NCBI GenBank assembly: GCA_003971905.1
Contig: RSEE01000065.1
Location: 310,001 to 374,000, forward strand
Direction of reading: 5' to 3'
Length of the DNA stretch: 64,000 bases
From: Moniliella sp. 'wahieum'
Lineage: Eukaryota
Of this stretch, positions 9,610-58,600 are shown one piece after another. The notes beneath the pieces were generated by a model. It was not told where the DNA came from. It searched no databases and saw only the letters and a program-made list of their open reading frames with translations. Positions within the stretch are counted from its first letter, which is position 1; each line of letters opens with the position of its first letter. A program made the translations under genes and the position numbers.

Positions 9610-11005
9610 TTGGGCACGTGAGCGTGGGCGTGGGCGTGGGCAGGAGGGGGTGGTGGAGGCAACGTTCAGGGGGTGGCGTGGGCGTGTCTGCCTGCCTCCG
9701 CAGCCAGGCGGCCGGGAGCAGCGCCCCATCGAACACCGGCACAGGCCGGCTAGGGTTAGCCCCCGCTGCGCCGCCGCGCGCAGCCACCGCCGCTGCTCCA
9801 CACTCGCCCTGTGCCACGTGACGTACGCCAGTCGCTGCAGCGCATGCAGCTGGTCACCTGACCTGGCCAGTCATCCTGTCATCGTAACCCCATCGCTGAG
9901 ACCATCGCCATAATCAATGGCCTTTGGCATGTGGCTTGTTATCGCCGACGCCAACATAACATGGGAACATGGGGCCAAAACACCCCACCACCCCCACGTG
10001 TCCCAGGTTGCTCATAGCGACGCCTGCCTAGCTGAATACTGGTATCCTGATCCGCCTGTGATCAGCCACAAATATGCCCGCCTGCGTCAGTATATTTGAG
10101 TACTGTGGGCATTCGGTTACTCGAGTACTGGTGCCTGAGGGTGCCTGAGTATACTACAATGGACAAGACCGGGAGTGAGGCTGTCCCTCAGATATTAGAC
10201 TTCAAGCAGGGGGCTCTGGGCGGTCTTAGGCCCAGGCTGCATTCGTGGTTCCCGTGCTTATTAGGCACTCACCTCAGCGCTCAGGCTGACCGGGCTGATA
10301 ATGATCGTCAGGCCGGCGTCAGGCACGTCAGGCCTCAGGCTGAGGCTTGACCTCAAGCTTCAAGCTTCAAGATCCATGTACATTTACATTGAAGTTCTGG
10401 GACGCCCAATACAGCCACATTTACTTGCCTCATTCGCGTCACTAACGGTTTTGTGCTGTGCACGTGTGCATTTTACCGAGTAACGGCGAGGCTATCGCCA
10501 TATCGATCTTCTCCTGTCCAGATTTTACTGCGCTTTTGGCCATTATATCTCCAAGGTGTTGTAGCACTCATCGAGACTACTGCGGCCTGGACCAAGGCAC
10601 CTGTTAGGGGACTGAGCCTCAGTAACTGAAGCGCTGAAGCGCTGAAGCTCTCGAAGCTTGAAACGGTGAACATCAGATCTCCGAGCACTGCATGTGGGCA
10701 TTCGTCTCGTAGGCGTGACACGTGACATGCCTAATGTGACACATGCGAGAGGCTTAAGGATTGAAACAAGAGGCCTTCGTACGCGAACGTGCCGCCTGCT
10801 TGATTAACCCGATTCCACATGGTTCGCTCTAGCAGCGCAGAAGGCCCGCATGGAGAGTCTGGGGGCATCCCTCAGGCCCTCGCATAGGCGTGATGATAGG
10901 ATTTACGATCTGCCCCTCACCAGTTCCTTATAAAACAAGCATGTCGCCTCCCCTTCCTCTCCTCTTTCCCCCACCCCCCTCTCTCTTCTCTCCTCCGTCT
11001 GCATC

Positions 11006-11639
11006 ATGTTCCCCACTGCGCTCTTCTCTCTTTTGCTTTTGGCCAGCTTGGTTCAAGCCGACAAGACCAAGGTTGACAACAAGGTGTACCTTATCCGGCA
11101 TGGCGAAAAGCCGGACAGTGGGATGGACTGTCGACCCAAGGCACCGAGCGGGCGCAGTGCCTTCCGTCGGTGTTCACCTCGTCGAACGGGTACAACCTGG
11201 GACTGATCATGGCGGAGCAGCCTCAATCGGATGGCTCGCAGCAGCGCCCCTACGACACGGTTAAGCCCCTTGCCGACTCGCTGGGGTTGACTGTGGACAC
11301 CAACTGCCAGCGCGACGATACATCGTGCGTGGCCAACGAGATCCAAAACTTTGCCGATTCGTCAAGCCAGGACATCCTGATTTGCTGGGACAAGGCGCTG
11401 TCGGACATCTCGGATCAGCTGGGAGACCAATTCAAGTACCCTTCCGACCACTTTGGTATGTCTCTGTCTGCCTCCCTTTTGTTGTTGCGCGTTTTGCGTT
11501 CTTTTGGGATTCTGTGGCGTATCTGATCGCTAACATGTGGGATGGGTGGATCGGCAATAGACTTGATCTACGAGATTATCGATGGCGACTTGACGTCCAA
11601 CTCGCCTGGTCTGAGGACTGCGCCGGGTTGGACTCGTAG
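11006..11639 (+). CDS. Small secreted histidine-phosphatase / phosphoglycerate-mutase-like protein (intron 11456-11560)
   Basis: Signal peptide MFPTALFSLLLLASLVQA, catalytic 'VYLIRHGEKP', 'RAQCL', 'RPYDTVKPLA', 'DILICW', terminal 'SEDCAGLDS*'; TATA-like TTATAAAA near 10928; intron GTATGT...GCTAAC...TAG. Confidence 0.85.
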
Positions 11640-12440: not shown

Positions 12441-12743
12441 CCAGGCAAGCGTCGCATCTCAGATCTCAGCGCTCACCTCAATCAAGCTCAACGCACGGGG
12501 GCTGGTGGACTGGGCCAGTGCGCTCCGCCCTCGGCTATACGCTGCTCGTCCATACCACACGTCACAGCAGGACCATGTTCAATGGGCTGCGTGGCGCACG
12601 ATAGCACACTCACCAGCACCCAGCCGCAGCTGCAGCAGCACAGGCCCGACAGCTCACGCCAAGCCGCGTCGGCGGCATGCACAGCTGCTCGCAGCCACGC
12701 GTGTCTTCCCGCGTGCCTCTCCTCCTCCACCACCACCGCCACC

Positions 12744-16505: not shown

Positions 16506-19414
16506 CGCGCGTCGCACGTCGACTGTGCTGGGGCGTCACGTAGGGGGTGGTGGTGGGGGGGGTGAAGGCGAAGGCATGCGGCACGGACGCAGCCTGGCAG
16601 CTGCTGTCCTGCCCCCCTTCTTCCTGCCACGTGGAGCAGGCAGCTGATCGTGCCAGGCAGGCCAGGCAGGGCAGGCACCTGACTGGCCTGGGCAACCGCA
16701 GGTCACGTGCTCCTCACGCTGGCCCGGCTCTCCTCTGCCTTGCTGTTTCCCCCGAGGAGGCGCGCTAGAGGCACCAAGTGCAACTAGGGTTACGGTGCTC
16801 TGCAACCAGGCCGGGCTGCGGATTGCGCTGCTATTACTTAGCTGCAACATCAGCGCAATCAGCAGCTGCGTGGGAGTTATACCTGCTATGGCCTCGGTGG
16901 TATTGGATACGAAAACGTCGGGTATATAGCTAAGTCCCCACCACGGATAGTGCCGTGCGCAGCATAAAATAAGAGGGGTAAGGCTTCGCCAATACGGGTG
17001 TGCTATAGATTTGTTGGGAGGGAAGGGTTCTCGGTTTGGGTATTGGGCACGATTTACATCCCGCATGGAGTTGCTCGGCGGCACCCCATAGGACAGTTTC
17101 CATTTGACAAGGATGCTGGTTGCTGTTCCTCTTTCTTCCTCGAGAAGAAGCGTTGGATGTAGGCTGTGTTGCCCAGGACCAGTACTTACACTTATTGTAT
17201 AGCACGTGGGATAGTTATATAGCGGCGAAGAGAGGCATAAAGCGCATCATCCAGGGACAGATGCCAAGACGTTTCGTTTGATGCTCTCTCCCGACGAGGG
17301 ATGAATAGCAGAGAGAACAAAGGTGGCACATTACCACTTGTTTCCTTCTCGTGGAACGCCGCGCTCGATCCAGCCTCGAGATGCTTGTTCCTTCATGCAG
17401 TTGACAACATGACAGCGAAAACATGGCGGCAAAAGAGAGAGAGGGGGAGGGTAATGAATCTTATTATCGTGAAAGGCACAGACGTGCGTCTAGACGCCTT
17501 TTGCACAGCCAGCACTTCCGCATTTTCACACCCCACTTCTTGACTTCTTCTATCATTATTGTGGGTTCTTCTGATCCGTATCACTCTCTCGCTCCCTTGC
17601 TCTCTTGCTCTCTTGCTCTCTTCTCGACTGGGCTTCTGTTTCAATCCCTTAACATAAACAACATGATCTACAAGTCTCTCTCCTACTCTTCTCCAAATCG
17701 CTGTCCGTCTAAAACGCCAAACATAATGGTTCCGACTCAGTTTCTCTCCTCCTTCTCGCCCCGGGTCGCTTTTTCCCTTGACCCTTCAAGTTTCATCCTC
17801 GAGACTCGTTCTTTCGCTTTATTCTTTTAGTGCGTGGCCATCACTTCCTTCCCTTACGATTCGTTTCCCTTAGACCCTTTTCCATTTGGAGCGTTTTACC
17901 CTTCACTCTAATATCGACATCTTGTAACAGTCGGGGCTAGACAAGGGAGACCAAGGTCCTGTCAAAGATGGGCTGAGAAATGGCACGACCGTTCGGGAGG
18001 AAACAAGAGGCATCGGGGAGTAGGGAACAGAAGCAAAAGGGAAAGGGAAGAGCGAGATATGCGGGATGCAGAGAGCGTGCTTAGTCGATTGGTGACACCT
18101 CTCTTGGTTCTTTCTCCTTCTCTCTTCTTCTTATGTGCCTGTTCTTTGACGAGGTGGACGGGTGGGGAGATGATGCTAATGATGTTGATGAGGTCGACGA
18201 GTGGCAGTAAGTCTAGAGAGGGTAATGCATACACACCCCTTGTATTTTTTTTCTGTTTGTTGGGCATTGGTCAGAACCCCGTCCCTTCCGGTCATTACTC
18301 TAGCGATTATTTTCCCTCCAGCTTCCCGAACGCATGGATATCGCCTGCTGTTGCGGATAGGGCCAATGCAAGGCCTAGGCCTAGCCCCTATTTAGATAGA
18401 TCGGATGTGTGATGAGAGTGATATGCCTTGCAGCTTACTTGAAATTGAAAAGCTCAACGATTGAAGCCGGGACCAGAGGCTCTTCCCCCGCAAAGGTGTG
18501 CTCGAGCATCCAGGCGCTCAGCTCCCCACGAAGCCAAGCCTAGACTGGAGGCGCTGGGACACGGGGGTGTTGACTGTGATCCTCTGGCTCCCAGTCGGTA
18601 GACCAGGTTCGCCTCGGTTCCATCGGCTTCCACGCTGACGTCCCTGCGTGTCACTGTCCCTGTGCCCTGCACTCTCTCCTGTGTGACTCACTGGCCCTGT
18701 GCCTAGTCCAGCCTCCTATATAGATGCCTCTGTACCCAGACCCAACTCTGGCTCTAATCCATCACCTTCTCCTCATCCTTCTGCCCGTCCGGCTCCCTAG
18801 GCCAACAGGGGGCGCCAGGCTCAGGCGTGCGGAGGAATACTGAGATCATTTTGGGGTGTGAGAAAAGAGACCCGAGGTACTCACTATGAAGCGTGACATG
18901 TGACAGGGGATGCATGATGTGCAGCGACGAACGAGGCACGCATCCTCTGAACGTGATGGATTCCGCCTATTTCCGCCGCATCTGCCGTGCCGCGGACGAT
19001 GGATGATGGGCGTGATGGGTGAGCTGGGCGGACGACACTGGCGCTGCGCCAGCACACATGGAATGCCGCGTGGGGTGGGGGGCCGCATGGGGGCAGTGCG
19101 ACCTCTTTAGCAGGCGCTGCATTGGGCGGACGCCTGCGGCTGCTGCTCGGGCCTAGCTGGGCCCTCCCGCCCGGGCGGCCGCAGTGTCTGCCGCAGTGCA
19201 TCCATTGGCCTGGTCTCGATCAGCAATCGTCCCACCACGCTGTCGTCGCCGATTCTGTCCCCCTCGCCCCATCTCCAGCCTGCTGCCTCCACCTCTCTCG
19301 GCTGCGATCGGTCGTTGCTACTCGCACCCCCCCACCCCCCCACCCATCCCACCGTCTGCTGCCCTCGCCTCGCCCCCCACCCCCTCCCCCCCCTGAGGGA
19401 GTAAGGTGGACAAG

Positions 19415-30487: not shown

Positions 30488-32094
30488 CAAGTGGAGACGA
30501 GAGGTTGCCTGTATTACTGAATCAATTTTGGCTGGAAACGTTCAGGAGTTGGACAGGAAAGGCGGGAAGGAGGGACGAGAACGGAAGGTGGGAAAGGATC
30601 CCCACCAATCGAGGATGCTGACTGTTGGTTGGCCCCTTTTCGGTAACCCCCTTCTGTCTAAGCCCCATCGCACTGGGATAGATGTTGACAGAGCGAAGCA
30701 GACGAACCTGCTATCGAGTGCGACTTGGGAGCACTCGCGATCCTATGGATCGCTGCAATGCAGCCTTCAGACAAGGCGTGAAGGCAAAGTTCAAGCAACA
30801 TCTGAATTGAAGGGACGGAGACAGGAGAGAGAGAAGGGAGATGAGGCGAGCAGGGCGCGCGCGCCCTGCGAGCGGAACTCTTCCGCCCGGGTAAGTGAGC
30901 GTCACCCATCCACGAGGGCCGTGCAAGGGAACCCCAGCACTACCCTCCAACAGAAGCAAGTGAAGACTGCGAAGGCACTAAGAATGTCATCCGATAGCAC
31001 TTCCTCGTCGAGCATATGACAGAGTCGCGTCGACGCGTCCCTCCACCCACTTAAAATGCCCCCTACCCGTACTCCCCGCCGGTGCCCCCATTGCGACACC
31101 GACGACCACACTCGCACGGGGTGCCCTTTGCATCCACGCCTACGGTTGTGCCGCCACTGCCGTCGCCCTGGCCACAAGGCTGCCGACTCCCCACAATGCT
31201 TATTTTCGAAGACGGATGACCACCCGACGCGTCTCTGACTGGCTCAAAGGGGGGCGGTGGTGCAAAGAGTAACCGAGGCACAAGGCGGAGTGGTCGAGAG
31301 CAATTGAGGGGGGAGGGGCAAGGGGGGACAAATCGGTGGAACATGGGAGGGGATGGAGCAGGATGATCGGTGGATGGCGGGCTCGATCCTTACCCTGGGC
31401 CCTGCCAGGAGGCTCTCACCCAGGTTGATGGGGTGCAATCCTTAGGTGGAGTACTCACGGTAGTTCAGGTTTGGGCTATTTGGTGGCGTGAATCCGAGGC
31501 GGCTGTACGCGTGCCAAGGCTGCGTATGCGCCGGCTTGGGGTAGTAACGTGTCTGAAGCCTCCGGGGCTTAGGGACGGGTAGGTGCAGTGGAGGGAAAAC
31601 ACTGCCAGAGCTGAAGCTGGGAAGGAGCGGCTGTCGACGTAGCTGTGAAAGGAACCCACGCGATATGCTGTGGTAGGGGGAATCGACGCCACTGAAGGAA
31701 AGTTCGCGCGACTGGGCGGATGAGGTTGGATGATGAACATGAGGCAGCTAAGTGGAGACGAGAGGTTGCCTGTATTACTCAATCAATTGGCTGGAAACGG
31801 TCAGGAGTGGACAAGAAATGTGGGAAGGGACGAGAATGGAAGGTGGGATAAAGGAGGATGCTGACTGTTGGATGACCGGTGACCCTGAGGCCTGATGAGA
31901 GAGAGAAGGGAGATAAAGCGAGCAGGGCGTGCGCGCCCTGCGAGCGGAACTCTTCCGCCCGGCTAAGTGAGCGTCACCGATCTACCGAGGGCCGTGCAGG
32001 GGAACCCCAGCGTTAGGCACTACTCTCCAACAGAAGCAAGCGAAGGCTGCGAAGGGCGAAGGCACTAAGAGTATCATCCGATAGCACTTCCTCG
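30488..32094. mobile_element. Unclassified 1.6-kb insertion with diverged direct terminal repeats (30489-31007, 31750-32094) and a 27-bp target-site duplication
   Basis: Identical TGTCACATGTCAGGTCACATGACTGCA at 30461-30487 and 32095-32121; both terminal repeats begin AAGTGGAGACGAGAGGTTGCCTGTATTACT and end CCGATAGCACTTCCTCG. Confidence 0.75.
31056..31238 (+). CDS. 60-aa ORF with two CCHC zinc knuckles (gag/ORF1-like remnant) inside the insertion
   Basis: CPHCDTDDHTRTGC (CX2CX4HX4C) and CRHCRRPGHKAADSPQC (CX2CX4HX7C). Confidence 0.55.
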   Translation: MPPTRTPRRCPHCDTDDHTRTGCPLHPRLRLCRHCRRPGHKAADSPQCLFSKTDDHPTRL

Positions 32095-33309
32095 TGTCAC
32101 ATGTCAGGTCACATGACTGCATGTGACCGTCAATGTTGAGCGTAAAGAGGAGTATTCGCACAGGTTATCCCTACTTACAACACCTAACAATGACCACTAG
32201 GGTGCATGCGGAAGCGACGAACAGCAGGGTCCACCACAGAGGGCGTGTGGGGAACCGTCCGTGGGAAGAAGAGCAAAAAGCCTCTGCCCGTGCTTTAGAT
32301 GTGCCGCTGCACCCCCTTTCCTTTTCTATGTGTGCCATGTATCAAAGCCATTATACCATCAGTGATCGATCGAATGATCCACTGACTGAGCCCTGCACCA
32401 GCGCATCAGCACCATCAACAATGCATCAGCGCTCAGGCTCTCAGCCTGGGCCTTCCATGCCACCCGGTCCGCGGCATATGCGCGGCGCCAACATGCGCTA
32501 TACCCACATCCCGTACTTTCCGCGGGGTTCCAGAGCCTCGTCCGTTCATTGATCATCTCGATCATTCCCGGTGTCAATTGTCCCCCAAAACAGGCGAGTG
32601 CGCCTCCGCTCGTTCTGGAATCCCATGCATCATGCACGTCACATCTTCCTTCCTGGATTGCCACAGCTAATATACATAGGCCAGTGCCCTATTATAGACC
32701 ACAGCGTGCATCAAGCATCGCGTGGTTTACCAGAGCCATCATCGATCATTGATCCTCCTTGGCTGTATATTCCTCAACCAACAGCTGTAGCACAAAACAT
32801 GTTGGAAGCTTGAAGGTTTTGATGTGTAGTAACAGGTAACAGGTAACCGATAACCGGTATCCGGTATCCGGTATAACATTCCAATCTCGTTCTTCTGCTG
32901 GTTCTGCCCTGTCCCGCCTCGACTACATGGAGGCTATTGATATACGATGACTAGCGAAAAGCTTGAAGCATATATGAAGACGCAGAGGCGAATGGCTGTG
33001 GCCGGCGGTGGCTGTTCGTGGATGAGTGCATGGTTGTGTGTGATGCGGGCTACGGGCTGCGCACGCGACCTGTGGTTTAAATGCCTTGGTGCATCAGCGG
33101 CTGAGCCCCTTATTGCTCCTAGTGGGATAGTCGATGGTAGGGTGTGGCAACTAGGTGTGGGCTTGCGGCACATGTCACATGTCACATGCAACACTGTTAC
33201 ATGTTGCAGTAGGTCGGAGTAGGCCGGATGAGTCCCACAGGCCAGGCGGCCGTTGTTTCGGGCCCAGCCTCAGCCTCGCGCTAGGCCGAGCAGGGAGCCT
33301 TGGAGCTCT

Positions 33310-33469: not shown

Positions 33470-33492
33470 CCCCCGCTGACCGGAGGGCCCAG

Positions 33493-36400
33493 TCATGTGG
33501 ACTGGATCATCTCCTCGACGCGGAGTTGAGCAAGATGGCTTGTCAGGGCGGGACGGCCGAGAGGCTTGGTGAGGACGTCCGCTGGGTTCCTTTCGCCGGG
33601 GATGTGTACAAGTATGGCCTCGCCCGAGTCCACGTGTTGCCGTACATTGTGGTACCGGATCTTCAGCTCTCGGAGCTTGCCGGTGCTGCCAAATTTGTGG
33701 GCGATCGACGACAGACTATTGTCGCAATACCAATGAATGGGGTGTACCCTCGCCGATGGCCCCAAGCTCGATCATGATGTTCTTGACATAGTTGGCGTCA
33801 ACCAGTCCATCATATCCTGCCGTATATTCGGCGGCGGCGGTACTGGTAACGCTCTTCGGCTGAAGAATGGATCGCCACGACACCGGCACACCGTACACAT
33901 CAGTAGGCATCCAGATGTGGAGCGTGCCTGGATGGGATCTCCCGCCAAGTCGGAATCTGTATACAGCGCAATGGCCGGTGCATGCATTGATGTTGGGGTA
34001 ACCTCAGGCCCTTTCCTCGAGTATGGTACAGGTAGCGAAGGAAGTCATCGACTGCTTGATGATGCTGCTGCGATGGGTCGGCAGCGGTCTGCTGAGGGCC
34101 GTTGATAGCGAAGAGGGAGTCAGGCCGGCCCATTCGTGCAGCCCACAGTCCCGACGATCTTCCCTGATATGCCTTGCGCAAGGCTGGGAGGATGGGGGTT
34201 CAGGGGTCGGCACGGGGCGGTATCATCCGTACGGGATGTGGGAGAGTCCGGATCCACGGGGCTTTGATGTGGTGCTTTGCCACCACTTCCTCGATGAACT
34301 TTGGTTGGCTCAGGTACAGCTCCCCACCGATCCGATCGTATTGGCATCCCAGGTGGTAGTGAAGGGGACCGTTACCACGAACATCAATGTGTGTGTTTAT
34401 CTCGGCCATAAACTCCTCGTACTTTTGGTGTGACTTGCATGCGAGGAGCAGATCGTCGGTGTGGACCGCCAGGAGGATCTGCTCACCCGGTGTGCAGCGC
34501 GCACGAACAAGCAGGGCTCGGTAAGCTTTGCGTGAAGCCGAGCTTGTCACGCAGCAGGTTCGGATGTATCGTGCCCAGTTTGCTCCGCTCTGATGTAGCC
34601 CGTATAGACTCTTCTTGAGACGCCACACGCGACCACCCGCTTCGGGGAAGTAGGGGGGTGGGCGGATGTAGACTGCTTCTTCGAGGGGGGCGTTCAGGTA
34701 CGCTGCATTGACGTCCGCCGAGAAGAGGCCAAACTTATACTTCTCGGCCAGCACGACGAGGGTCAGGATGGCAGGTGTGCGCACGATGGTGCGAACGTCT
34801 GGCCCCAAGTCTCGGCCGATTGTTGGTGTCCGCCCGCGACAAAGCGCGCGCGGTGGCGCAGGAACCGGCCCTCGGCGTCCGTCTTTGTGGTGATGCGCCA
34901 TAGTCCTATGAGGATTTGTGCACCGGTGGTGGGTACGTAGCCTCGTAGGTGCCGTATCGCGCGAGTGTGGCCACCTCGTCGGCCATAGCCTGCTTGACCA
35001 TGGCAAAGGAGGGGTGAGTCTCGAGACCCTTGAGCGTCTTGGGAGCGAGGGGTACGCCATCCTTGGTGAGCTGAACCGTGTCCGGGTGGATGGGTGCGCT
35101 GAGAGCAGTCATGGCGGCGTATTCGGGAGGTTGAACTGTGTCGGCAAACGGGGGGGCGGATGTGTCAGGTAGGGGGCGGGCGATGACGATCTCTGGTGCG
35201 GCGCAGTGGGGCGTGGCGGCTGCAGCACGAGCATGGTAGGTCGTGTCGGTGGGGTCGTCAGCGATTGGGAGTGTGTGCAGGTCGAGGGAGGTGCGGGTGG
35301 TGCGCTGGCGGAGGGGGTAGCGGCGGAGGGGGGTGGTGGTGGGAGCGGGTGTCTGGGGTGTGGCGGCGGTTCGGGGCATGGGTGCTGCCGCGGCTGGCGG
35401 AGTAGGGTTAGCGTCTTTTTCACTGTCGATTTTAATTTGAGGTGATTTGGAGATGTCGGTGGGAAGTGGTCGGGGTGGAGATGGGGGTAGATGGCGTTGC
35501 CCCTTTGTACGGTTTCGACCAGCGGTAGGTGAAGGTACCCAGGGATGGTTGGTATGTGGCGAAGAGCCATCCCTTTGATCCGCGCTGATGGTGGTATCCT
35601 ACCAGCATACCTTCCTCTGCCCGCGCGCTGAGCTTGTGCTCGCGGCGTGACTCGGGCAGATGGAGGTATGCAACGCGGCCAAAGGGTTGCATCGGTAACG
35701 AGTATGCGTGGCCTTTGTATCGCTCAAATCGCGATTTGTTGTCTTCCCCGGATGTTTGAGTGGCATTTGGTTTTGGGTGAAGCACGCAGCGTGGAGGCTG
35801 TGTTCCCACCAGTCCGACGTCGGAAGACCTGTACCCAAGAGCAACTGCCTTGCACGAGTCGTTATGGTTCGGATGGCACGCTCAGCCACACCGTTGCTAG
35901 CACTCTGCCCCGGGATTGTCCGTTCTGACGTGATGCCTTGCTCGTCAGAAAAGGTTGCAGTGCGCTTGTCAATTCGGGGGCGTTGTCCGTGCGCAAGTCC
36001 GCAGCAGTCTGTCCGGGCCGTAGCGTTGCTCCCGCAATATGAGGTTCCGCAGTTCCTTCGTTGCAGCGCCCTTTGTCGGGATCGCTGTGGTGAAGACGTA
36101 CCGCGTGAAGTCATCAACGGCGACGAGGGCGTATCCGTGCCCCATGCCGGTTACCCGGGGGAGGTCTACTACGTCGACGTGGAGGACCTCGAAAGGTCTT
36201 TTGGATCGGAGGCGGTCCCGGCTCGGATGGGGCGATGCTGTCGCTAGTGCCACCGCGCATGTTGGGCAATCCCACTCTGAACGACAGAGGGAGATATGCT
36301 TGGCTGTGACGCGGAGGCCTGCGGTTTCCGATCGTGTAAGCCAGGGGAGGAGGTCGATGGCTGCGTGGTTCCAGCGTTTGTGGGCTTTAGAGACGTGGTC

Positions 36401-36889
36401 CAGGGCCAGGGATGCTGCGAGGGAGTTTGGGGTTGAGGGTGGGTCGGCCGGTTTGATCGGTTTGGTCGCCATGGCCCGCAGGGGTGTGGGTGGCGTTCGC
36501 GGGTTGTGTAAGATCGTGAATTGATAGTCACTGCCGGTTACTTTTCGTAGGGTGGATCCTGGGTTACCAAGCCAGATACCCTTCTGGTGTGGGGCGAAGT
36601 ATGATGCGATTCCGGTGTTCGACAGGTGTGCTACACTGACGAGATTTCGGCTGAAACGGGGCATGTATAGGCTGTTGGGGAGTTTTATCTCCATTTGGTG
36701 TCCTCCTAAGCATCGGATACGGATTGTGGCCGTGCCTCGTCCTTCCGCCTTTACATGTGTCCCGTTAGCAACCTCTATCTCGTCGTCGCAAGGGGTCATG
36801 GATGTGAAGACGGATTTGTCTTTCCAAATGGATGGGAATGCCCCACTGTCATATAATGCCCGGATGATTCGCATTTCGCCCCCGAGTTC
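33493..36889 (-). CDS. pol: Copia pol: protease, integrase, reverse transcriptase, RNase H (broken by indels)
   Basis: PR 'LYDSGA'; IN 'HKRWNH...CPTC', 'LHVDVV', 'VDDFTRY', 'SNGVAER'; RT 'ADVNAAYLNA', 'LKKSLYGLHQSG', 'VHTDDLL'; RH 'YTDSDLAGD', 'AEY', 'NPADVLTKPL'. Confidence 0.93.
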
Positions 36890-38137
36890 CTAGTAGTCAG
36901 CTGTGCCCGCATCAACGTCAATCACTTCAGACTCGGGAGAGCTCGCTCTCTGAGCGACGTGAGCGTTGGCTCGGCCTGGGTTGCGCGGAGGGACAACAGG
37001 TTTATTAGACGTCGCGCTGCGCCAGGGTTGGTTGGTGCGGTCTTGCCCCTTGGTCTTTGTGTCCGCGAGGTTGTCGTCGCCGGCTTTGCCCCCGCTGGAG
37101 TTTTTTCCCCCGCTGGTGGGTCGTCCCCCGCTGTCGGGTCGAGTCCAAGGCGTTCCTCCGTTGACCGGCTTGCCTCCGTTTCTCTTCCTTTCTCCACCGG
37201 GATACGTGGCGGCTGGTATGTCCATCACGGCCTGCCGTAACTTGTCTAGACTCGAGCGCTCTTCACGCTGGCGAATGCTCATGTCGCGTAAGCCGAGTAG
37301 GATCCCAGTGCGTTCCTGCTCTTCCGTAAGTGGGATGCCCGCTCGCGTCAGGCTTGCACTGATCTCTTCCATGTAGTCGAGGTAGTCTCGACCCGATCGG
37401 TTTCCTTGGTCGGCCGAAAAGTAGCGAATGAGTAGAGGCCCTCTGTTTGCGGTAGGCGTATATCCATACCGCTGACGCAGCATGTTCAGCGTGTCCTGGG
37501 TGCATGATATTTCGTGGTGGGTGCGGATCGTCCGGAAGAGGGTTGACGGCATGGCTTCCCTAAGAAGGTTGTGCAAGCGTCTGTCGAGGTCCTCGGTGAA
37601 GTAGCGGGAGCTGCGACCATTCTGGACGACGTCGCTTGCGTGGGGGTGGGCATCTGTTATCGCGAAGAGAAATTCGTCTTCCCAAGCGCTGTAGGCGGAC
37701 GGGTCTTTGTTCAGATCAGGCCACTTGATATTCTTGGTGGGAGACTCGCGTAGTGATCTGTAAAGGTCGTACTCGGGTCGCGAGGCTGCGCCTGTAGGTG
37801 CCCCCAAAGTTGCGTTGGGTTGAGTTTCCATTTGGTGGATGTTTTGCACCACAAAATTCGTAGCCCGTCGAACCCAGTTTGTCGTGATAGACGTAGGTTC
37901 GTCCTTCCATCCAAGCCACTCGGCTCTGTCGTGTATAGCTCTGTTGATCTTCTCTTTAACGACATCGATGTCGTTCGTCTTCTTGAACCACAGGTGCGCT
38001 TCGGCGCAAAGCATCATGAGTTCCTCGTTGTCGGTGCCAATCGGTGGCGGATCGCGACCGGTTGGTGTCCAGTAATCGCGCTTGTTCACCATTGTGGTGT
38101 CGCTGACCGAGAGATCGGTGTTAGCGTTGGCGCCCAT
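36890..38137 (-). CDS. gag: Copia gag (no CCHC knuckle seen), ends at a UAG in frame with pol
   Basis: Uninterrupted ORF from ATG 38137 with 'YSAWEDEF', 'LNMLRQRYG', 'DYLDYMEEI...L..AG'; position between the 5' LTR and protease. Confidence 0.85.
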   Translation of the reverse strand: MGANANTDLSVSDTTMVNKRDYWTPTGRDPPPIGTDNEELMMLCAEAHLWFKKTNDIDVVKEKINRAIHDRAEWLGWKDEPTSITTNWVRRATNFVVQNIHQMETQPNATLGAPTGAASRPEYDLYRSLRESPTKNIKWPDLNKDPSAYSAWEDEFLFAITDAHPHASDVVQNGRSSRYFTEDLDRRLHNLLREAMPSTLFRTIRTHHEISCTQDTLNMLRQRYGYTPTANRGPLLIRYFSADQGNRSGRDYLDYMEEISASLTRAGIPLTEEQERTGILLGLRDMSIRQREERSSLDKLRQAVMDIPAATYPGGERKRNGGKPVNGGTPWTRPDSGGRPTSGGKNSSGGKAGDDNLADTKTKGQDRTNQPWRSATSNKPVVPPRNPGRANAHVAQRASSPESEVIDVDAGTADY

Positions 38138-38191
38138 GGTTGTGGGTGTAGTTTTGGCCAGCTCAGGGATGAGCAGATAAGGATGTAACTC

Positions 38192-38354
38192 TGTCGTCGG
38201 CCTCGCTACTACCACAGAATGTGAGCACTGAACGTCGTATTGGACTAAGAAGCTTCTGCGACTGACTCGTCCAGAAGACTGGTGCGAGCTCGGAAGGAAT
38301 GAAAGCTGACTCACGTGACTCAGGGTCCGCGCGGTCCTAGGACGGATGTCAACA
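38192..38354 (-). repeat. 5' LTR of the Copia element
   Basis: Direct repeat of 33310-33469, followed on the plus strand by the TSD GCTCT. Confidence 0.93.
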
Positions 38355-39689
38355 GCTCTTGAATCCTTGAAGCTTGAAACGTGCTTGATGCTTGATGCCC
38401 GGTGCCCTCCTCACAGGCCTGAGCCTCAGGAGTTTGAGAGGTTCTTAACAGCGAAATGATCCACACCATACTCCACCTCTTTTTTCCACCGTGCCGCTCG
38501 TTCCGACTACGATACCCCCGATTACCCTCCGTTTTGCTAACATCTGTCTCCTCTACCATGTACAAGTTCTTGGCATCCATGTGGAATATGAAGACCCCCC
38601 GCACCACGCATCGCGTGGACCCGTCACGCGCCGCGCATGTGAGTGAGATCTGTGAGAATCTGAGGAAAACACGATGCATATGATGCGAAAGGGGCAGATC
38701 GGCCTTCTTTAGTATATGCAGGTCCGTGCGGCGAGCGTGTAGGCAAGCGGAACGCGCGCGGACGCGCGAAACCAGTTTGATCCAGCATGAGGGCATGAGT
38801 AGTAGTGGGCTATAGTATGAGGCTGAGGAGGCTTTTGTGGGGACCTTGGTCGCAGGTCACCGGCCGGTCATCGGTCACCGGTCACCGGTCATCATCATCA
38901 TCATCACAGATGGGTCTAGGACTGTCTAAGGATGTGAGAGAGAAAGTCGCGCTGATTGCAACTGACGCGGGGGGCTCAGCGGCTCCACCGTTCGCAGGCG
39001 AACGGCCCCGTGGCGTGAGTAGGGCACATTTGGAGCTCTACTTCTAAGCCTGGCTGATCGCCAAGCAGGGGTCCGAGGAAACATCTGTAACTCATTGATG
39101 CGCTGCGCGCTCCGAAATTCACGTCAACGTTTTAACGTACGTTTAACGTTGATCGATGATCGTTGAACGTGAACGTTGAACGTTGATCATCGATCACTCG
39201 ATCACGTTGATCCAGCCGTCCGGAGCACTGGACCCTACCGCGAAATACTACGTGCACCAATCCATCATCATGCATCACAGTACTCAATTCGTTCGGTACG
39301 GTCAGTGCAATCCGTTCGCACGCCGGGGCAAATGTTCCGGCCGGGGTGCTTCGGCCGGGGTACTTCCAAAATTAAGCGATGCTACATGTCGCTGTCGGAG
39401 GCCTCAGCTGAGGCTTCTCTGCTGCAGTATACCATTGCAAGCTCTAGGCCTTTGGTATTAGATCTTGGACCTTATTGTTCGGTGCAGATGAGCGCTCTCT
39501 GAGATCTCAGGTCTCAGGGGCTAAGAAATCAATCAATTGTTACATGTGTGTGCATTCCATTGACAGAGCTTAAGGCTGGGACAGGGGAACCTACGTCTAA
39601 ACCGAACCGTTCATCTTGCGGGGGTTACTTGGAAGCGCCACCAGATTAAGGGACCAGGGGGATCGCCAGGATATCAGGACCCTCCGGCT

Positions 39690-41013
39690 CACGCCATCCG
39701 GTTCCCGTACCCTAGGAAGCGCGTGGGACACGGAAACGTGGTTGACATACGAGCGAGGAACCATTCACTGAGACTTAGTAGCCAACTCCTTCAATGCGCA
39801 AACAACTTGCCCGCCGTCTTGGTGCCGTAGTATCCTCGCGTCGTCAAAACCAGGGGGAAAAACGGTTCTTGAGTGCGTCCCTGGTACTTGGCGTTCTGTC
39901 GCATTCTGCTTGTTCAAGCAGCCGAAGCAGTTCCTTCTCCCGTTCCAAAGCGACGCAGTGCTCTCATGCAACCACCCGCCGGTACGCGCTCTGCGCCTCC
40001 TGCGATCCCGTGTCGCGCAGCGTGTGGTCTCCTCCATTCCGGTTCCTCCAGTGCTCCGGGCCCCATCACGCGGTAATCGGTGCGCTGTGCCTTCCGTCCG
40101 CGCCTCGTCCCATCCTCTTCCTCCACCATAGGTTCGTTGTGGACGTGGGTGTCGGGGATGGAGCGGAGGAGCTGGAGAATGGGCTCCCCACTGCCTCATG
40201 CAACGCACAAACTTGGCCTGGGGCGGGTGCAGGACATGATGTTTCCAGCGAGGACATGACGCCGCACTTGCACATGCTGCGCGTGGTGCGCACAGCGTGC
40301 GGAGCTGGAGACACCAACCTGGACCTGCTGGTCAGAGAGCTTGAGGTACGGGACGGATGGAAATAGCGGAGAGCCAGTTGTGGCTCAGCGGGTTGCTGTG
40401 CTCAACCACATGACGACCATCGCAGCGTCCAGCTTCTGGAGCAGCTCCTGTCGACTTTGCTCCCACATCTCGCGGCAGCGTGGCGTTGCTTCGTAAATGC
40501 GTTGGCCCTTGCCGTTTTGCGGTCCCGAACGGTCACATAAGTGGTAATAAGATAGTCGTTGACCGTTGGCCGCGGCACGGGCGTGGGGCGCAATATACGA
40601 GTAAAGCGGGCTGCACATCCTCCCAGCCGAAGAGGCAGGCTCATGAGCATGTCGAAGTGGTCGTCCTTGGCACCTTGGGGATCCTCGTCGCCCCGGATCC
40701 GTCTGAACTCCGTACAGATGAAGGCATCAATCTCGGCCAGCACGTCGTCTAGCTCTCCTTCCATCTGCATGGTGCGGAGCAGGTGGCGCAGCTTGGTCTG
40801 AGTGCTGAGCCGCCATAGTAGAGGCGTCCCTGGCGGGTGAGCCATCAACTTAGGCATGTTCTCCCTCAGATGGCCAGTTGGGCCCGGAGCCACGATCGAC
40901 GACAGTACCCCCACACAAGTGCCAGAACCTGCAGACCATCCACCCGAATCTGGTCCCGGTCCCGCTCGACACACTTGTGCAGGTTGAGCTTGAGGCCTGA
41001 CGCGTCGCTTCAA
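39690..41013 (-). mobile_element. Decayed, 5'-truncated non-LTR retrotransposon of RLE type (CRE/Cnl1/MoTeR-like), post-RT half only
   Basis: 'TKLRHLLRTM', 'LMSLPLRLGG', 'LSDQQV', 'CKCG...H' knuckle remnant, 'RTDYRV' and 'PLVLTTRG' across shifted frames, in the order expected for fungal RLE elements; no RT core seen. Confidence 0.62.
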
Positions 41014-41079
41014 AATATAAGCTTACGCCAAGGGTATTAAAGCTTTTTTGCAACAAAGAAATGACAGCACGCGCAAATG

Positions 41080-41330: not shown

Positions 41331-42053
41331 AGCAAATGTATGCAAATGTATGCAGAAAGTACACTTGAGGGTTGCGGGTTGCCTGATTCGACATGCTTCT
41401 TCCCTCTCTATACACCGCTTCTGCCCGATGCGCAGGAGTCCTTTTAAAGCCTTAGCCTGAGACCCCCCTTGCCTATTTCCCGAGGCTCCAAATCTTTCGA
41501 ACTTTGATCCACCTCTATAACCGCTTGTCCTACGTCTACAGGGCGGATTGAATCCCACAAACTATGTGTGGTCCCACCGCCAGGTATTCGGCCTTTAGGC
41601 CTGGCCACAGGCCTTACATGTTGAACGTTGATTCATGATTTGAGGGGCCTCGGCGCCTCAACTTGAGGCCGACCAGATCCCAGAGGGGAGTTGGGGGATT
41701 ATCGATCATCGATCATCTGATCGATGGTCATCGATTGGGCTCGTGACATGTGACAAATGACATCATGATGACACACACACAGGTAGGGGCAGGGTATGCT
41801 GTCTGTCGCAGCATACAGCCATATGCATACGCAGCCATATGACCCCGCAAGGATGGGGTGGGTACACTGAGTACTGGGGGACTCCGAGTACTGAGACGCA
41901 GGACTCCGTCCAGGGGGGCTGCGGGCGCGTATTGCCTATGCCAACCCAGGTGCTCCGACCAGCGTCGGCGACATGCGGCTGCCGGTTGCCGAGCGCCACG
42001 GTGTGTGAGACTGGTGCATATGCATCAACGATCGGGGCCAGCGCGCAGCAGCC

Positions 42054-48236: not shown

Positions 48237-50166
48237 GTTGGACGAACGATTGAAGAGAGTCGGATGAAGATGAGGGGTTAGAAGGGAAGTAAACTCCCTG
48301 AAGGTGGTGTATAAGAGGGAAGAAGGAGAAGATGAAGGACTACTCGACAGGCTCCTGAAATTCAGCGTCTAGCTTTATGCTGTGGCTGTTAAGGTCCAGG
48401 ACTAAGGCCTATACGCTTATATCTCTCCGTTAGTCTATAGCCTCTAGAAGCGCCACACTCGGAGGCGTTATTACATGCTTGCATTAGAGCGAGAGTGCAA
48501 TAACCGGTAACTAGGTAACTCCTACAGAAGCACACAGGGTTCAGTGTTTTGCATACCGATATATACGCTCCCGCCGGCCCAGTGCCATAATCAGGTGCCA
48601 GCTGTTGCGTTTTCGGCATGAAAGACGCCGCGTACCGACAGGTCAATACGTGCTCAGCAAAACTTGAGGCTTGAAGACCTGCTCAAGGCGGCCTGAGGCC
48701 CCGGTAAAGGAAAGCCGCCCCGTAACGCGTATACGGTGATGCGTATATACGACGGCGGTAATCGCAACTGGTCTGCCCCTGGGATATTCATTCATTACCA
48801 GAAGACTTCCCTGATTTACTGGTTGCCTGATTAGGTTAACTCAGTTACCGGCCCCACAGTGGTTGTATTGGGTCAAGTGTTTGGAGTGACGAACTAGTGA
48901 CTTCATGATTGGCGAGACTATATGGTGTTGATCGATGATTACCGAGTATTACTTGGGTGTAACCACCGCCATGGCGATAATCGATAACAAGCGACAACTT
49001 GGCTCTGTTGGGTGGAAGTCGGAGAAGGCTTTTTGGATGACAGCCACAAGCAGGTGTGGGCTGGTGTGGCAGACATCGCAGGGGCTTTGCTTTGCGCAAG
49101 ATAGGAAGGGATGCGAGTATGCGACAGAGCTTCCAGCTTCCGCGGCTTCCAGCCCACAATGTGGCTGTTGTGTGGCGTTGACTTCAACCATCGATCACCG
49201 ATCGTGGAATGCCGACTAGGCCGAACTGTCTCACTAGCGCCGATTTTGCCGTGTTCGGCGAGTGTTAGATCTCCGATCATCGATCATCTGTCCCTTCTTG
49301 ACTGGTCCTGACTAGTGACTGCATCTCTCCTCTTTTGGCTACTATGGGCACGTTGTGGAAGACGAGAGAAACAAAGTAGACATAGCTGTTCTCTTCCAGA
49401 AGAAACGATTCTCAACAAAGGATACGGAGAGGAGAGTCGGACAAGAAGGCACGATTTACGAGAAATCTGTGGGCATGCCTTTGTGTACCAACTGTAACAG
49501 CGTTCTCGATCATTTTTGCCCATGCTTAATTGGGCTCTTCAACAGCTTCAACGTCCGTGAGTACTGAGTGAAAGAGGAAGAGTGCCCAATAGGAGTATAG
49601 GTGGGTTATGCCTTATTGTCCCGTATATTAGGTGTGCTGGCCGGATGCTATTGTCCCAAAGCACTGAGGCCGCGCTGAGGCTTGATGCACTTGATGCATG
49701 GTGCTTTTGCAGCACTGTGGTCTATAGCATGTGCGGAGACGACACAAAAGCACTCCATTGAGATATGGTCGTTTCTCGCAGACGTAATATAGTACGCTGC
49801 CTTCTCTTTTCATTGCATTTCCTTCTCTAACTTCATGCATCTACCATCGAGAACATCCCCACTACGGAGGCCGGCGCACTATATCCTTTTGTCGTGTGGG
49901 GCAGTACCACACGCATATAAAAAGGGTCGCATCTGTCTGCATCCGGACGATTATCTAGAGCCCATACAATGATACGGGCTTTCAGAGTCCGATACGACAG
50001 AATAGGTAGTGAATGAGGAGTGTGAGTTGGCTGTGACGCCGGATGCTACAATCGGAACGAACGTGGAGAGAAACAGATACAGCTGTGCCGGTCAAAAGAA
50101 CGAACAAATTGGCGACGTGTGAACGAGCGCAAACAAAATCCTCGCCTGAGGTCATCCACTCGCTCG

Positions 50167-52456: not shown

Positions 52457-54089
52457 CTGCTGGATCGACGGCGGCAGCGCTCAGCCCGAGCCACAAAAAC
52501 ACTCGCTTATCTGGAATGGCAAGCACCAGCCTGCTGAAGGAGTGGAAGCAGCGAGCGCCCGACTGCTGATGGGGTGGAGAATGGTTGATGGGATCGGATC
52601 GATCAGGCGGGGCAGGAATGGGCGTAAGCACGTAAGCGTTGAGAGCCCAAGTGCCTGTGGGTGTCAAGCCTCAGGGCCTCAGGCTGAACGCTGAACAGAC
52701 GCTGCGCCTGGAGGTGGAAGCGGGGATGGAAGCTTTGAAGGCCGACGCCAGCCGAGACCGCGCACGAAGAGCCTGAAGTCCGGGCGAGAGGCTGCGGACG
52801 GGGCTACCCACCATCCGAGCACAACCAACAAAACCACGGCCCATCGCCCTCCCCGTGCTGCTCCGCGGAGAGGATGAGGATGTGAATGCGCTTGGCGCGG
52901 GGCGCGGCACCCGTGCACTCAAGCCACCCGAGTGCGCATTGAATATTTTGTATTTCGTCCGATGACTTCCGTCATCGCAAGCCACTCCAGGCCCGGCGCT
53001 CGCCGCCTTCTCTTTCCCGCGGCTTTCTCGCCCACGCGAGCAAAGCGGGCTATGGATAAAACCACCAACGCATTCCCGGGCCTATCTTGGCCTTCTGTCA
53101 CTGCATAACCACTACTTACATTCAACGCAACTCCCATTCCCGCGGTAAACCAGGTGATGAACGTTGAACGTTGAACGTGCCCACACGAATATATTGGAAT
53201 GAGTATCGTACCCTCTGAAAATACTAATACTGGCTGCCCTCCCCGACGCATAACCCTCTCTCGTGAGAAGATCGAGGATAAGGATCCCTCTCTTGCTCTC
53301 GCCCTCTGAGTTCCTCCGAAAAGTCTGAGTTCCTCCGAAAAGGAGATGCTCCATGGTTATCCTGACGAGAGATACTGCAAATCCCGGCTTCGAACAATAA
53401 CCGTAACTCTGTCGTCGCGTGGCTGCGGCGGCGGGCGGCCGAGCCTGGCCGAGAGCCCCTGGCCAAGCCCATACGCTCCCTCCCTTTTCTTAGTCTTTGC
53501 CTTGGGTATAGGTCTACGCCGGTATGAACGTTTGAGAACGAACATTGAACAAACACACGTACTCCGGTCAATTCTTGACCCGCACCAGGTAACCCCCGGG
53601 CGTTTCTCCTAGTATACACCGACTGGAAGACCAACAGCGATCCCACCGACCACATCTTCCAGTGACCACTTCTGGGCCTTTTCCAATCGCCATCTCCAAG
53701 CGGGCACCCATTGCCGCCGATCTCCCGAATCCACCAGCCTCCTCGGTATTACGGATTCGGCGGCGATTCTACACGAGTTGAGTGACAGGACCTGTCCCAC
53801 TAGCCTTTTTTCTTTTTCGAAAGCCCTCACCCTTCGCAGCACCGCTTCCATAGACACTTTTTTGCAACTCCCTCTGAAAGGTTACATGCTGTTCCCACCC
53901 TCTCCCTCTGTACCCATCCTCTTAAACAGCTCCCCACAAACGAAGAGCTTCTCCGGTCGCGCACATATGCCACTTCATTCCTAGAACATGATGATTTAAC
54001 CCATTTTGTCTAGTAGAGACGAAGAACCGCCCTTCGCTTTCCTAAGGTAGAATGGAACATACACCTTGGCAGTACGGTGAAACGAATCC

Positions 54090-55624: not shown

Positions 55625-58600
55625 GGTGGATGTGTAGGGAAGGGGAAGGGCAAGACGGGGAATGGGGGTGAGATGTAGTGTGGAGGAAAGGAGAGAGGGG
55701 GGGGGGTGGATGGCGATGGGAGAGAAAAGAGATGGGGTAGAGGCGCAGATTGAGGCGGCACGGTGTCGATGAGTGAGAAAGGGCAAGCAGGCACCATACG
55801 ACAGACAGGACGCGAAGCACGGACCAGGTCTCAGATTGCACAGTGGCAAGGAAGAGGACAGCAAAAGTGTCGCCTGCCACTCTGCCACCTCCCAAGAGAC
55901 ACTGCTCTCACGCTCTCCTTGGTTCTTATCGATTACCGAGATTATCTCGATTATCGCCAGTGGCGACCGGTGACTCTGGGGTTGGCGAGTACTCAGACTG
56001 AGTACCGAGTAAGTGTGCGATCCTGATTTCAAACACTGCCCCAGTGCGCCATCGGCTGATCCAACTTACATGGCTCTCTCCAAGCTCCACCTCGGGGCCA
56101 CCCATCCCCACAGACCACATGCCTGCCACAACCGACTGATCAAGCTTCAAAGTTCAAAGCTTCAAGCTTCAAGCAGCGAGTTGACGGCGGCCCCTTTTGG
56201 GCCCTTCGTTATACGCACCCGGATGCCGATTGTTGCATGTTACCGGTTACCGGTTATCCTTTCCCAGCGATGGGAAGCACGATGCACCGAGGCTACGCGT
56301 TGCGCGCAGCGTTGCACCTTGACGGCATCCGCCGGCCCTGGCGACGTGCACCTGGATGGCGATGACATAATTCTCGCTCGGTGCCCCATTTGTGATGATT
56401 GATGATCGATGGTCGATGATCGATGATCGATGATTCTACCTCTGAATATGAAATATGAAATTTGACCTCTTTGCTCCCATCCTGTGCAGATCCCCATGGT
56501 GAGCGCTTAGGCTAAGCGCTAAGCGCATTCAAGCTCGTTAGGCCTTAAAGTCCGTCTGGCCCCAGCACCCCTAGGCCTAGATGGTGTGCGCCCTGGCCAA
56601 ACGTAGCCAACTCACCACCACCGTCTCGACCTGCCACCTCGTCTTCACGCCCACGCCCGCTATAGCGCCTGTGAGAGTTATGCCCCCGCAACGTAGTACT
56701 CTCCCTCAGCGTGGCCCCATGCCATGCCCATGCAGGAGATGTGCTGGGCGTTCGGTTTTTGTCTGGAAGACCATCCGGCGTCATATACTTGAGCTCTACG
56801 GGATCAATCAAATGACCGATATTCATGACCCAGGCATGCTGGTGTGGCTCTACACTGGCACAAACTTGACTAAAAGGTTCTCTCACGGCGGGATAAGCCT
56901 GTTCTCGCTGCGGAAGTTGCGGGCCCCATTATCCAGCCTGGGCCTGCCAACCGGCAGCGTACGTTCCATCTTTCGGCGCATGTTGGACCTACAGGCAACT
57001 CACTCTGTTCCCCAGTACGTGCAGCACTGGAAACTTTGCAACCCGGTTTGCCCATTTCAGACGTGAATGGGGCGGCTGCGCCAATGCTCACGTCAAAGCC
57101 ACCCTCCGATGCCCAGGCCAGTCGGGTATTACCAACTCCTACGTCAACTCACGCCTTTGGAGACAAAGAGAATGCGGAACCTGATCTCCAGCGTGATGGG
57201 CAATGAATGTTTCCATGTGTCCGTGGGACAATGTTGAGGCGAGGCTTACAGACGACGACGTCAGCTTTTGCACCTATAGAGTGCTATGCGCTGCACCTTT
57301 GATCAATTTGAATGCCTCCTGTTCCGGAGTACATTTGTGGAAGGGTATACTAGTTGAAAAATGGGGGCGTATCCTCGTACTTGTTCATGATCAATCAGGA
57401 GAGTAGTGTTCCAGAAGGCAGCAACCAAGAGGAAAATGGCCAGGACAGTGCATACAACCCAGCATATATCAGCGTCTTGTTTTCTCGCTGACCTTGGGCA
57501 CCTCAAAGGGGCCCAAGCTGCGTGCACTGTGCCCGATTCTGAGCCTGCTTTGGAGTCAGGGACGGTGCGCGTCCGCGTCACTGCGTGCCCAACTATACTA
57601 TACTAATTCCTGTGTACTAGTACCGTTTCCGGCTGCAACGCGCCATTGCTGATGATCTTCGCGACACACTCCGCGTCTATGTCAGTGGGAACCACCGTCT
57701 GCCAACCCAGCTGGAGGGGAGCATCTTCGTCTATCGTGATCCGCGTCGAGAGCACGTCCTGCCTGAGTACCAGAATAAATGCACGGCCTCACTTCCATAT
57801 AACCCTAAGGACATAGCCGGGCTTTGGTACTCAAGTGTCGATGGAGTTGTGGTGCGGCTGTTACCGACATCGCGCATGCATTAGCTGACCACAGGAAGGA
57901 CAGTTGGATACACGCGGACTCCTCTCTGTTGGAATATATGCCACCCAACCCGTGCCTTTGTTGCCCACAGCTCATCGAGCGGTCATCATACGCGGGAGTG
58001 GTGCATTCCCCTCCCACACCGGTGTTGTTTCGCGACGCTGCTGTTCCTCTCTCTCTGCTCATGCCCACAGTGCTGGAGTTCTAGGATGCAAGATGTGAAG
58101 TGGGTGCTTATGATATAGGCGCCAAATCCAACTCCGACCCCGCGGGACATGCACCGCAGCCAACGGCTACCACAGGCCCCCCCAGGCACCCGCAACCGCG
58201 CACCTCCGACGCACACTGGCCTACGCCTACCCCCCACCAGCCCAAGGCGAACAGGGCCGTCTGCGTCTCGCTGTCCCCACAGAGAGCCAGTGCCCCCCCG
58301 CCACACACCTGTCGCCCGCTCCCGATCAGAGCGCGTCAGCCTCCACAGACCTCCACACGAGCTGCCCAAAGCACGGGGACGGGGGCGCTCTTTTCCAGCC
58401 GATGGTGACGTCACTGCAGTGGGAGGGCTTAGACTCGGCGGGCGCCTCCCCCGGACAAATGCCGCACCTGTCCAGCGCATTCCCTCGCAGCTGTGGCCTG
58501 CTGAGCGACGCTTACAAGTAGCTAATAGTAATGCTAACGACTCGGATCGATGCTTGGCTGCCCCGCGTGACCCGCATGACTGCAACATCAAGTGTCGCCA

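Follow-up and report, generated by a model that had tools for sequence, protein, structure and literature searches.

The window analyzed here is the whole 64,000-bp stretch at positions 310001–374000 of contig C65 in the Moniliella sp. 'wahieum' assembly (G000; 69.5 Mb in 223 contigs), and its intergenic DNA carries short arrays with a 7-bp period, whose units join the triplet T-N-A (hereafter, TNA) to a four-base palindrome. The units obey a single rule, namely duplication of a 7-bp site, ab-TNA-wx, with an inverted copy of one flank written over the place where the two copies meet. The arrays are probably stacked excision footprints of a cut-and-paste transposon whose departure leaves hairpin-derived palindromic (P) nucleotides, the agent being a CACTA-like family with CTCACTG ends; the broader proposition, namely iterated excision of any family that makes 7-bp target-site duplications (TSDs), is likelier still.

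Among the Pfam matches in the window are Fungal_trans and Zn_clus, and one host transporter has its best matches in the Ustilaginomycotina, at no more than 56% identity, which on the strength of this single gene points to a deeply branching basidiomycete allied to the smuts. Homopolymer frameshifts are apparent at 11007–11430 and in other genes, as expected of unpolished long reads. Each region tested occurs in the assembly as two homologous copies, here termed haplotypes, with an identity of 83–98% by block; the pairs are window 1–64000 with G000:C17:~352,000–417,200, C1 with C25, C17:552–562k with C62, and C20 with C22. Judging from the sequences, these duplicated regions reflect a hybrid or a dikaryon, and they are useful for before/after tests. 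The features of the window that bear on the arrays are as follows:

10328..10337, no strand: single unit TCA-GGCC-TCA
10353..10371: (TCA-AGCT)x2-TCA-ag array between a VHS-domain gene and a gene starting at about 11007; second haplotype identical
10633..10647: 8-bp variant, two GCTGAAG 7-mers separated by one P-type base
12457..12475: mixed array tc-TCA-GATC-TCA-GCGC-TCA; the left flank matches the left core, the right flank mismatches the right core
32830..32871: degenerate run of period 7 that includes one perfect TAA-CCGG, inside a 245-bp stretch unaligned to the second haplotype
33169..33188: (TCA-CATG)x2 array
38868..38891: TCA-tcgg-(TCA-CCGG)x2-TCA array
39120..39212: mixed ACGT/TCGA cluster, exceeding the second haplotype by 12 and 23 bp
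41699..41753: TTA/TCA-TCGA array and a TGA-CATG-TGA unit
48501..48520: TAA-CCGG-TAA, then GGTAACT twice around one P-type base (8-bp variant)
49307..49320: before/after pair, cc-TGA-CTAG-TGA-ct in the window versus cc-TGA-ct in the second haplotype
49681..49696: CTTGATG twice around two P-type bases (9-bp variant)
52961..52967: unscarred ga-TGA-ct; the second haplotype has ga-TGA-CTAG-TGA-ct, an exact product of the rule and not a plain duplication
53158..53178: (TGA-ACGT)x3 array; second haplotype one unit shorter
56140..56174: TCA-AGCT array, some units degenerate
56232..56256: (TTA-CCGG)x2-TTA after a degenerate CATG unit, 14 bp more than the second haplotype
56403..56433: (TGA-TCGA)x4 array, one unit degenerate
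56513..56526: (TAA-GCGC)x2
56581..57791, plus strand: internally deleted remnant of an EnSpm/Tnp2-type transposase, 71–76% identical to copies on C17 and C62; no terminal inverted repeat (TIR) was seen at this remnant

The initial annotation had drawn attention to the period-7 arrays, and they are real, in that every unit it cited is present in the window. Its single units at 10328, 39489–39517, 41744, 41868, ~49690, and 56140–56174 were confirmed, and strict runs of at least two TNA-plus-palindrome units form 13 arrays (starting at 10353, 12459, 33175, 38875, 39143, 39170, 40991, 41699, 48501, 53158, 56240, 56417, and 56513), of which the one at 40991 had not been named. One cluster was overstated: the "six units" claimed at 32830–32871 contain TAA-CCGG in perfect form once only, and those with TAT violate the TNA rule. 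The arrays exceed a Markov background, with 14 pairs of A-NNNN-T palindromes lying 7 bp apart versus 0.70 ± 0.94 in 30 order-4 simulations. The enrichment is specific to that spacing and outer base: only 1 and 2 such pairs are found at distances of 6 and 8 bp, respectively, and palindromes with an outer C, G, or T give 1, 1, and 2 pairs at distance 7. Forty-seven 10-mers of the form TNA-palindrome-TNA with identical N occur in the window. The diversity of cores noted earlier also stands: about ten had been counted, and there are 13 in the window and all 16 palindromic tetramers in the 464-kb sample (41 sequences, made up of the window and C1:1–400,000) on which the core statistics below are based.

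The pattern is strongly non-random and genome-wide. Exact counts over the assembly gave 1,048 occurrences of TNAACGTTNAACGTTNA versus 7 for its reversed pattern, used as the control, and 10,714 of (TNA-N4)x3-TNA versus 2,844, and every one of the ten commonest exact period-7 repeat units obeys the TNA-palindrome rule. In the sample, four bases set between two TNA triplets are palindromic in 544 of 1,320 cases, compared with 57/863, 168/2,927, and 166/3,271 at the control junctions ANT, CNG, and GNC, respectively. A core length of four alone stands out: such cores are palindromic in 448 of 823 cases, and odd cores of five in 29 of 307, near controls. When the 448 units in 464 kb are extrapolated to the two-haplotype assembly, a figure of ~65,000 units is obtained. 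A metagenome scan for one ACGT array scored 123 loci of at least 124 stretches, none of which had more than three cores, so that this weak test brought to light no second genome with the grammar.

Coding DNA is nearly devoid of units, in agreement with the initial annotation. Specifically, 267 motifs fall in the 62.7 kb of the least-coding class versus 1 in the 99 kb of the two most-coding classes, by a crude, home-made Markov score that the motif itself may depress, and 14 motifs lie within the 119 kb of long open reading frames used to train that score. Under a crude gene model, units in tandem spacers are biased away from the 3' side (1, 8, 37, 28, and 35 by fifths). This avoidance of coding DNA and of 3' ends would suit selected promoter binding sites or structural elements, but such an origin is very unlikely. 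The mismatch between haplotypes is 3.8% within units (102/2,710 bases) and 3.9% in their flanks (1,102/28,250), so that no selection on the units is seen; in addition, 149 of 420 unit occurrences overlap an insertion/deletion (indel) between haplotypes, and there are sixteen cores, each predicted by its own flank. The earlier contention that no single transcription-factor motif explains the arrays is upheld, and some arrays could have been co-opted later. A library or assembly artefact in the form of fold-back chimeras can practically be dismissed. The assembly is unpolished, with 2,145 single-base indels between haplotypes in 241 kb, yet 200 of the 420 unit occurrences recur unchanged at the orthologous position on a separate contig of the other haplotype, and the avoidance of coding DNA argues in the same direction.

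The initial annotation had attributed the units to iterated fold-back about two symmetry centers. Fold-back complements the base N, yet the two N positions beside the core carry the same base in 448 of 544 cases, complementary bases in 54, and otherwise different bases in 42, and plain fold-back therefore fails. Instead, the inverted part comprises 1–3 bases only and lies inside a direct 7-bp duplication centered on TNA, so that the site ab-TNA-wx yields either abTNA-wxx'w'-TNAwx or abTNA-b'a'ab-TNAwx, with primes denoting complements. Around isolated units, the periodicity tends to extend two bases beyond TNA on one side only (of 198, 31 are in class 0/2, 30 in 2/0, and 9 in 2/2), and in 208 of 281 units at least one of the adjoining two-base flanks matches the continuation of the core, where chance would give ~12%. 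Of the 19 mixed junctions, 10 agree with the flank on both sides and 17 with that on at least one. Longer forms follow suit: where 7-mer repeats are separated by one base, that base is a P-base in 30 of 32 cases (controls 2/8, 8/20, and 11/26), and spacers of two bases are of P type in 34 of 59 (controls 2/15, 5/42, and 7/57), 12 of the misses stemming from one 9-bp tandem repeat. With plain tandem duplications excluded, the 2+TNA+2 geometry gives 13 of 14 for one-base and 10 of 13 for two-base spacers. Finally, units in which only the inner pair is inverted form an enriched class (25/95 versus 7/96, 20/157, and 16/171).

Before/after evidence comes from the two haplotypes, of which 241 kb were aligned, with 3,566 indels; the alignment is pairwise and gives no direction of change. 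Indel sizes peak at 7 bp and slightly at 14 bp, there being 47, 53, 71, 32, and 18 indels of 5, 6, 7, 8, and 9 bp, respectively, and examples in the window are seen at 49314, 52963, 25210, 52881, and 56232. Among the 27 indels of 7 bp with clean flanks, 13 follow the rule exactly at TNA (9 of them non-duplications), 2 follow it at another center, 2 are plain duplications, and 10 are neither; the 44 with imperfect flanks were excluded from this exact count. When one mismatch is allowed, 28 of all 71 match the rule, and the control centers give 3, 0, and 1. Three of the seven clean 9-bp indels consist of the full duplication plus two P-bases, and only one of twelve clean 8-bp indels matches at TNA. 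Together with the neutral divergence of the units, these indels support the original suggestion that a mutational or repair process writes the arrays.

Ordinary microsatellite slippage, favored by the hairpin-forming, near-palindromic heptamers, would fit the excess of identical over different adjacent cores (86 versus 24) and those haplotype indels that are plain unit gains (duplication is the better fit in 7 of the 71, and 19 are ties). As a sole cause, it is refuted and deserves almost no credence: slippage cannot make the first unit, whereas 9 of the 27 clean indels are exact non-duplication events, nor can it make mixed cores that obey the flank rule, and it offers no reason for the enrichment of TNA over ANT, CNG, and GNC junctions. 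Slippage probably acts only secondarily. Mixed cores make up 23.6% of two-unit runs when the rule is iterated in simulation, and 14 of 61 were observed.

The events behind the rule may be pictured as follows. An element would insert at 5'-ab-TNA-wx-3' and duplicate the 7 bp, as is seen for one complete miniature inverted-repeat transposable element (MITE) described below. Excision would be of the RAG/Transib style, each host flank being sealed as a hairpin exactly at the junction, which is suggested by the even-centered palindromes and by the RAG1 fold of the EnSpm family. Host enzymes would open these hairpins mostly 2–3 nt from the tip, and joining of the overhangs with full overlap would give a net gain of 7 bp and a joint that is an inverted copy of one flank; joins without overlap would give the 8- and 9-bp forms. 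Every scar would supply a new TNA target, such that repeated visits could build arrays made of a left-flank block and a right-flank block of cores, and slippage may extend the long ones. Scars of this kind would be near-neutral, purged from coding DNA, and left to accumulate upstream of genes, and the likely agent would be the family of CACTA-like elements with CTCACTG ends, mobilized by an EnSpm-type transposase. A single scheme of 7-bp duplication, inner-end hairpins, variable opening, and rejoining covers all unit classes. Two other types of element were ruled out. Tc1-type footprints take their core from the TIR ends, and here the core follows the flank and not a fixed element end; for PIF/Harbinger, a search with PF13359 gave no matches, and the duplication reaches 2 bp past TNA on each side versus a 3-bp TSD.

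A TIR family with CTCACTG ends and short subterminal repeats is present in the genome. Its complete 378-bp MITE (L224:9311–9688, on C20) consists almost wholly of subterminal repeats, has the termini CTCACTG..CAGTGAG, and is flanked by GATGATG on both sides. It lies in a host repeat with at least 39 other copies; a single GATGATG site or a one-base variant is found in all 29 of the other copies retrieved, the orthologous copy on C22 among them. Similarity alone led to a solo end on C66, whose flank CATCACC is in the right register, and TNA is present at all five independent element-end sites, three of which were selected by a pattern that requires TNA. The search for CTCACTG ends gave five matches, none beside a transposase, and a TIR-plus-TSD finder run over the 464 kb gave seven candidates, none convincing. 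Separately, both haplotypes (L223:310–354 and L214:7727–7771) have a 45–60 bp solo TIR end directly upstream of a gene that matches MRP-L47 weakly (E 0.013). Short subterminal repeats, a feature of CACTA/EnSpm elements, are present inside the TIRs at both ends of the MITE. The available text of PMC12730594 gives the CMCT clade, including Transib, CA..TG ends and 2–5 bp TSDs. Set against these characters of CACTA/EnSpm (CMC/CMCT) elements, the termini here are CTCACTG..CAGTGAG and the duplication is 7 bp; as the family departs in both terminus and TSD length, "CACTA-like" is a working label and does not denote membership.

A search of the genome with the PF02992 profile matched two loci, a Tnp2 gene on C34 and a copy on C17/C62. 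The C34 gene (L167:3259–6872, minus strand) spans profile positions 22–884 and keeps the D, D, CxxC, H motifs, and E; its nearest representatives share ~26–47% identity over short stretches. No TIR was found within its 10-kb locus, where a triose-phosphate-transporter-like gene stands on one side and a second host gene, presumably a HAD phosphatase, on the other. The predicted structure (pLDDT, predicted local distance difference test, 84.6) of a 968-aa relative of the C34 protein, not of the C34 protein itself, gave 47 PDB matches at E ≤ 0.001, and among the matches listed all are RAG1, BbRAGL, or HzTransib; a sequence search of PDB with the relative returned one match, at E 1.6. The C34 gene is thus a candidate for an immobile transposase source, and its pairing with the MITE is plausible. 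It is tempting, if speculative and rather doubtful, to suggest that the C34 enzyme is a host-kept, RAG1-fold mutator that has long acted on promoter regions, either through tiny MITEs or directly on host DNA, with active sites 2 bp further out than in CACTA, thereby turning TNA into a 7-bp target and CACTG into CT-CACTG ends. The C17/C62 copy, in which the first D is replaced by H, shows 25 synonymous versus 92 nonsynonymous differences (44 versus 23 in host genes), and this neutral divergence and the lost D ruled it out as a domesticated source.

Several observations weigh against the reading of the arrays as stacked transposon footprints. Thirty of the 71 indels of 7 bp match neither the rule nor a duplication with up to two mismatches, and the rule is the better fit in 15, to be set beside the 7 and 19 given above. 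When indels were polarized with multicopy repeats, 0 of 13 matched the rule and no case was informative, and 0 of 5 private insertions in one long terminal repeat (LTR) family matched it. All four of the four-unit runs are homogeneous, versus 57.5% in the iteration model, and one three-core run is forbidden by that model without mutation; the longer runs are thus more uniform than predicted, which suggests added slippage. The C20 MITE is the only complete element found, its TSD falls within a run of GAT, one of its flanks lacks 10 bp, and its partner allele is empty and bears no scar. No large haplotype insertion with TIRs and a 7-bp TSD was found in the 241 kb. None of the Tnp2 genes examined has TIRs; in this error-rich assembly the C34 gene is interrupted by four or more frameshifts, and the C17/C62 copy is a dead pseudogene. 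Finally, scars exceed visible element ends by thousands to one, and no element-filled allele stands opposite a footprint allele in the 241 kb.

These last two points, very few element ends beside tens of thousands of scars and the missing pair of filled and footprint alleles, also favor the main rival, an element-free process in which a host nuclease, or template switching by a polymerase, would produce a 7-nt staggered lesion at TNA, and a 1–3 nt snap-back with realignment would then write the same product. It amounts to a corrected version of the proposal in the initial annotation. The minimal event can indeed be expressed as a 5-bp duplication plus two inverted bases. Such a process is nonetheless unlikely. 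It leaves unexplained the exact 2+TNA+2 block with P-bases from either side between full copies, as well as the same 7-bp duplication on an element with TIRs, and no enzyme is known to hairpin-cap filled blunt ends. Moreover, the scarcity of elements is not fatal to the footprint reading. The 241 kb contain about 28 polymorphic 7-bp events, which scales to some 4,000 genome-wide since the haplotypes split. If neutral divergence is ~4% and mutation proceeds at a yeast-like ~3e-10 per base per generation, then by rough reckoning it would suffice for a few element copies to jump about once per 100,000 generations each.

The same footprint mechanism might be driven by another family with 7-bp TSDs, e.g., the TIR-less Kyakuja (KDZ) or hAT7, for both of which the accessible part of PMC12730594 reports such TSDs in basidiomycetes, but this is improbable. 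For hAT, the palindromes of Ac/Ds center on the complement of the adjacent base, as far as the available portion of PMC5873905 goes, whereas those here are even-centered. Profile searches of the genome gave no matches to PF10551 or PF13359; PF05699 also gave none, its controls were silent as well, and that search is uninformative. In addition, the CACTA-like MITE already carries the right duplication.

Other mobile elements were noticed alongside the arrays. A Copia-type LTR retrotransposon (RVT_2, rve) at window 33310–38354 has a 5-bp duplication, is absent from the second haplotype, and contains 0 units. A truncated, multi-copy non-LTR retrotransposon, CRE/Cnl1-like by motif reading, occupies 39550–41015 on the minus strand. 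Also absent from the second haplotype are a 242-bp TG..CA solo repeat at 18567–18808, whose ends are shared by a 1.39-kb insert on C25 (perhaps a miniature LTR element), and a 1.6-kb multi-copy insertion at 30488–32094 with a 26-bp duplication of an array-bearing site. Elsewhere, a repeat family (L034:7202–7626, L017, L015, and L018) is without a target duplication and ends in a GC-rich hairpin and CTAG; by these features it is Helitron-like.

Should the footprint reading be true, most period-7 tandem repeats in this genome would have been built by a transposon repeatedly landing and leaving. The scars would then constitute a natural library of hairpin opening and end joining in a basidiomycete, as well as indirect evidence for RAG-like, exact junction cutting by an EnSpm-type transposase, and the 2–5 bp TSD range given for the clade would be broadened by a CACTA-like element whose target is 7 bp. 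The process inserts short palindromes upstream of genes, and these are raw material for regulatory change.

Although the initial annotation recognized no described family in the arrays, target duplication together with P-nucleotides is a described kind of scar, known from transposon excision footprints and V(D)J coding joints. Ascot-1 of Ascobolus is reportedly a fungal precedent. Our literature search, made largely without subscription papers, found in the texts available no description of genome-wide stacked footprints of such a kind and no direct test of RAG-like junction cutting by an EnSpm-type transposase. With the fungal CACTA/EnSpm elements (CNIRT6 and CNEST of Cryptococcus; EnSpm and ESTA of rusts), the system here shares PF02992, a terminal CACTG, and subterminal repeats. 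For fungal CACTA elements, the accessible part of PMC12810828 gives CACTG or CACGG as the ends and duplications of 2–3 bp; CNIRT6, for example, starts with CACTG and has a 3-bp TSD, and CNEST has a TA TSD. Relative to CNIRT6, the CT-CACTG terminus is longer by two bases at each end, and the 7-bp TSD adds two target bases to either side of a 3-bp core. Stowaway elements of the Triticeae have likewise reinserted beside an earlier footprint, although the portion of PMC1925063 available concerns one locus, with TIR fragments between TA duplications, whereas the cores here are flank-derived and genome-wide.

Flank hairpins have been reported for hAT, Transib, RAG, and Muta1 (PMC5499845, available in part). 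In that same text, the flank hairpin of the Aedes Mutator-like element Muta1 measures 43+43 nt, in keeping with a cut at the junction; the element differs in its 8–9 bp TSD and ~90% precise excision (PMC5225508, from the part available), and PF10551 had no match here. The Ac/Ds (hAT) footprints of plants, S. cerevisiae, and C. albicans resemble those here in combining a target duplication with short P-nucleotide insertions, and a few dominant footprints and well-described P-nucleotides are reported in the accessible text of PMC5873905. Ac/Ds palindromes are odd-centered, however, and the usual hAT TSD is 8 bp, whereas the scars here are even-centered, 7 bp, centered on TNA, and fixed and stacked across the genome. 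The even-centered palindromes therefore group them with RAG/Transib and not with hAT. Indeed, V(D)J coding joints and the RAG1, BbRAGL, and HzTransib systems share with the present case short, even-centered palindromes at the joint and flank hairpins, the latter being proposed here, and V(D)J joints differ in that here a duplicated 7-bp target encloses the joint, which is strongly stereotyped (+7). Taken as a whole, the chemistry itself is already known, and it is the stacked-scar route to tandem repeats that is little recognized.

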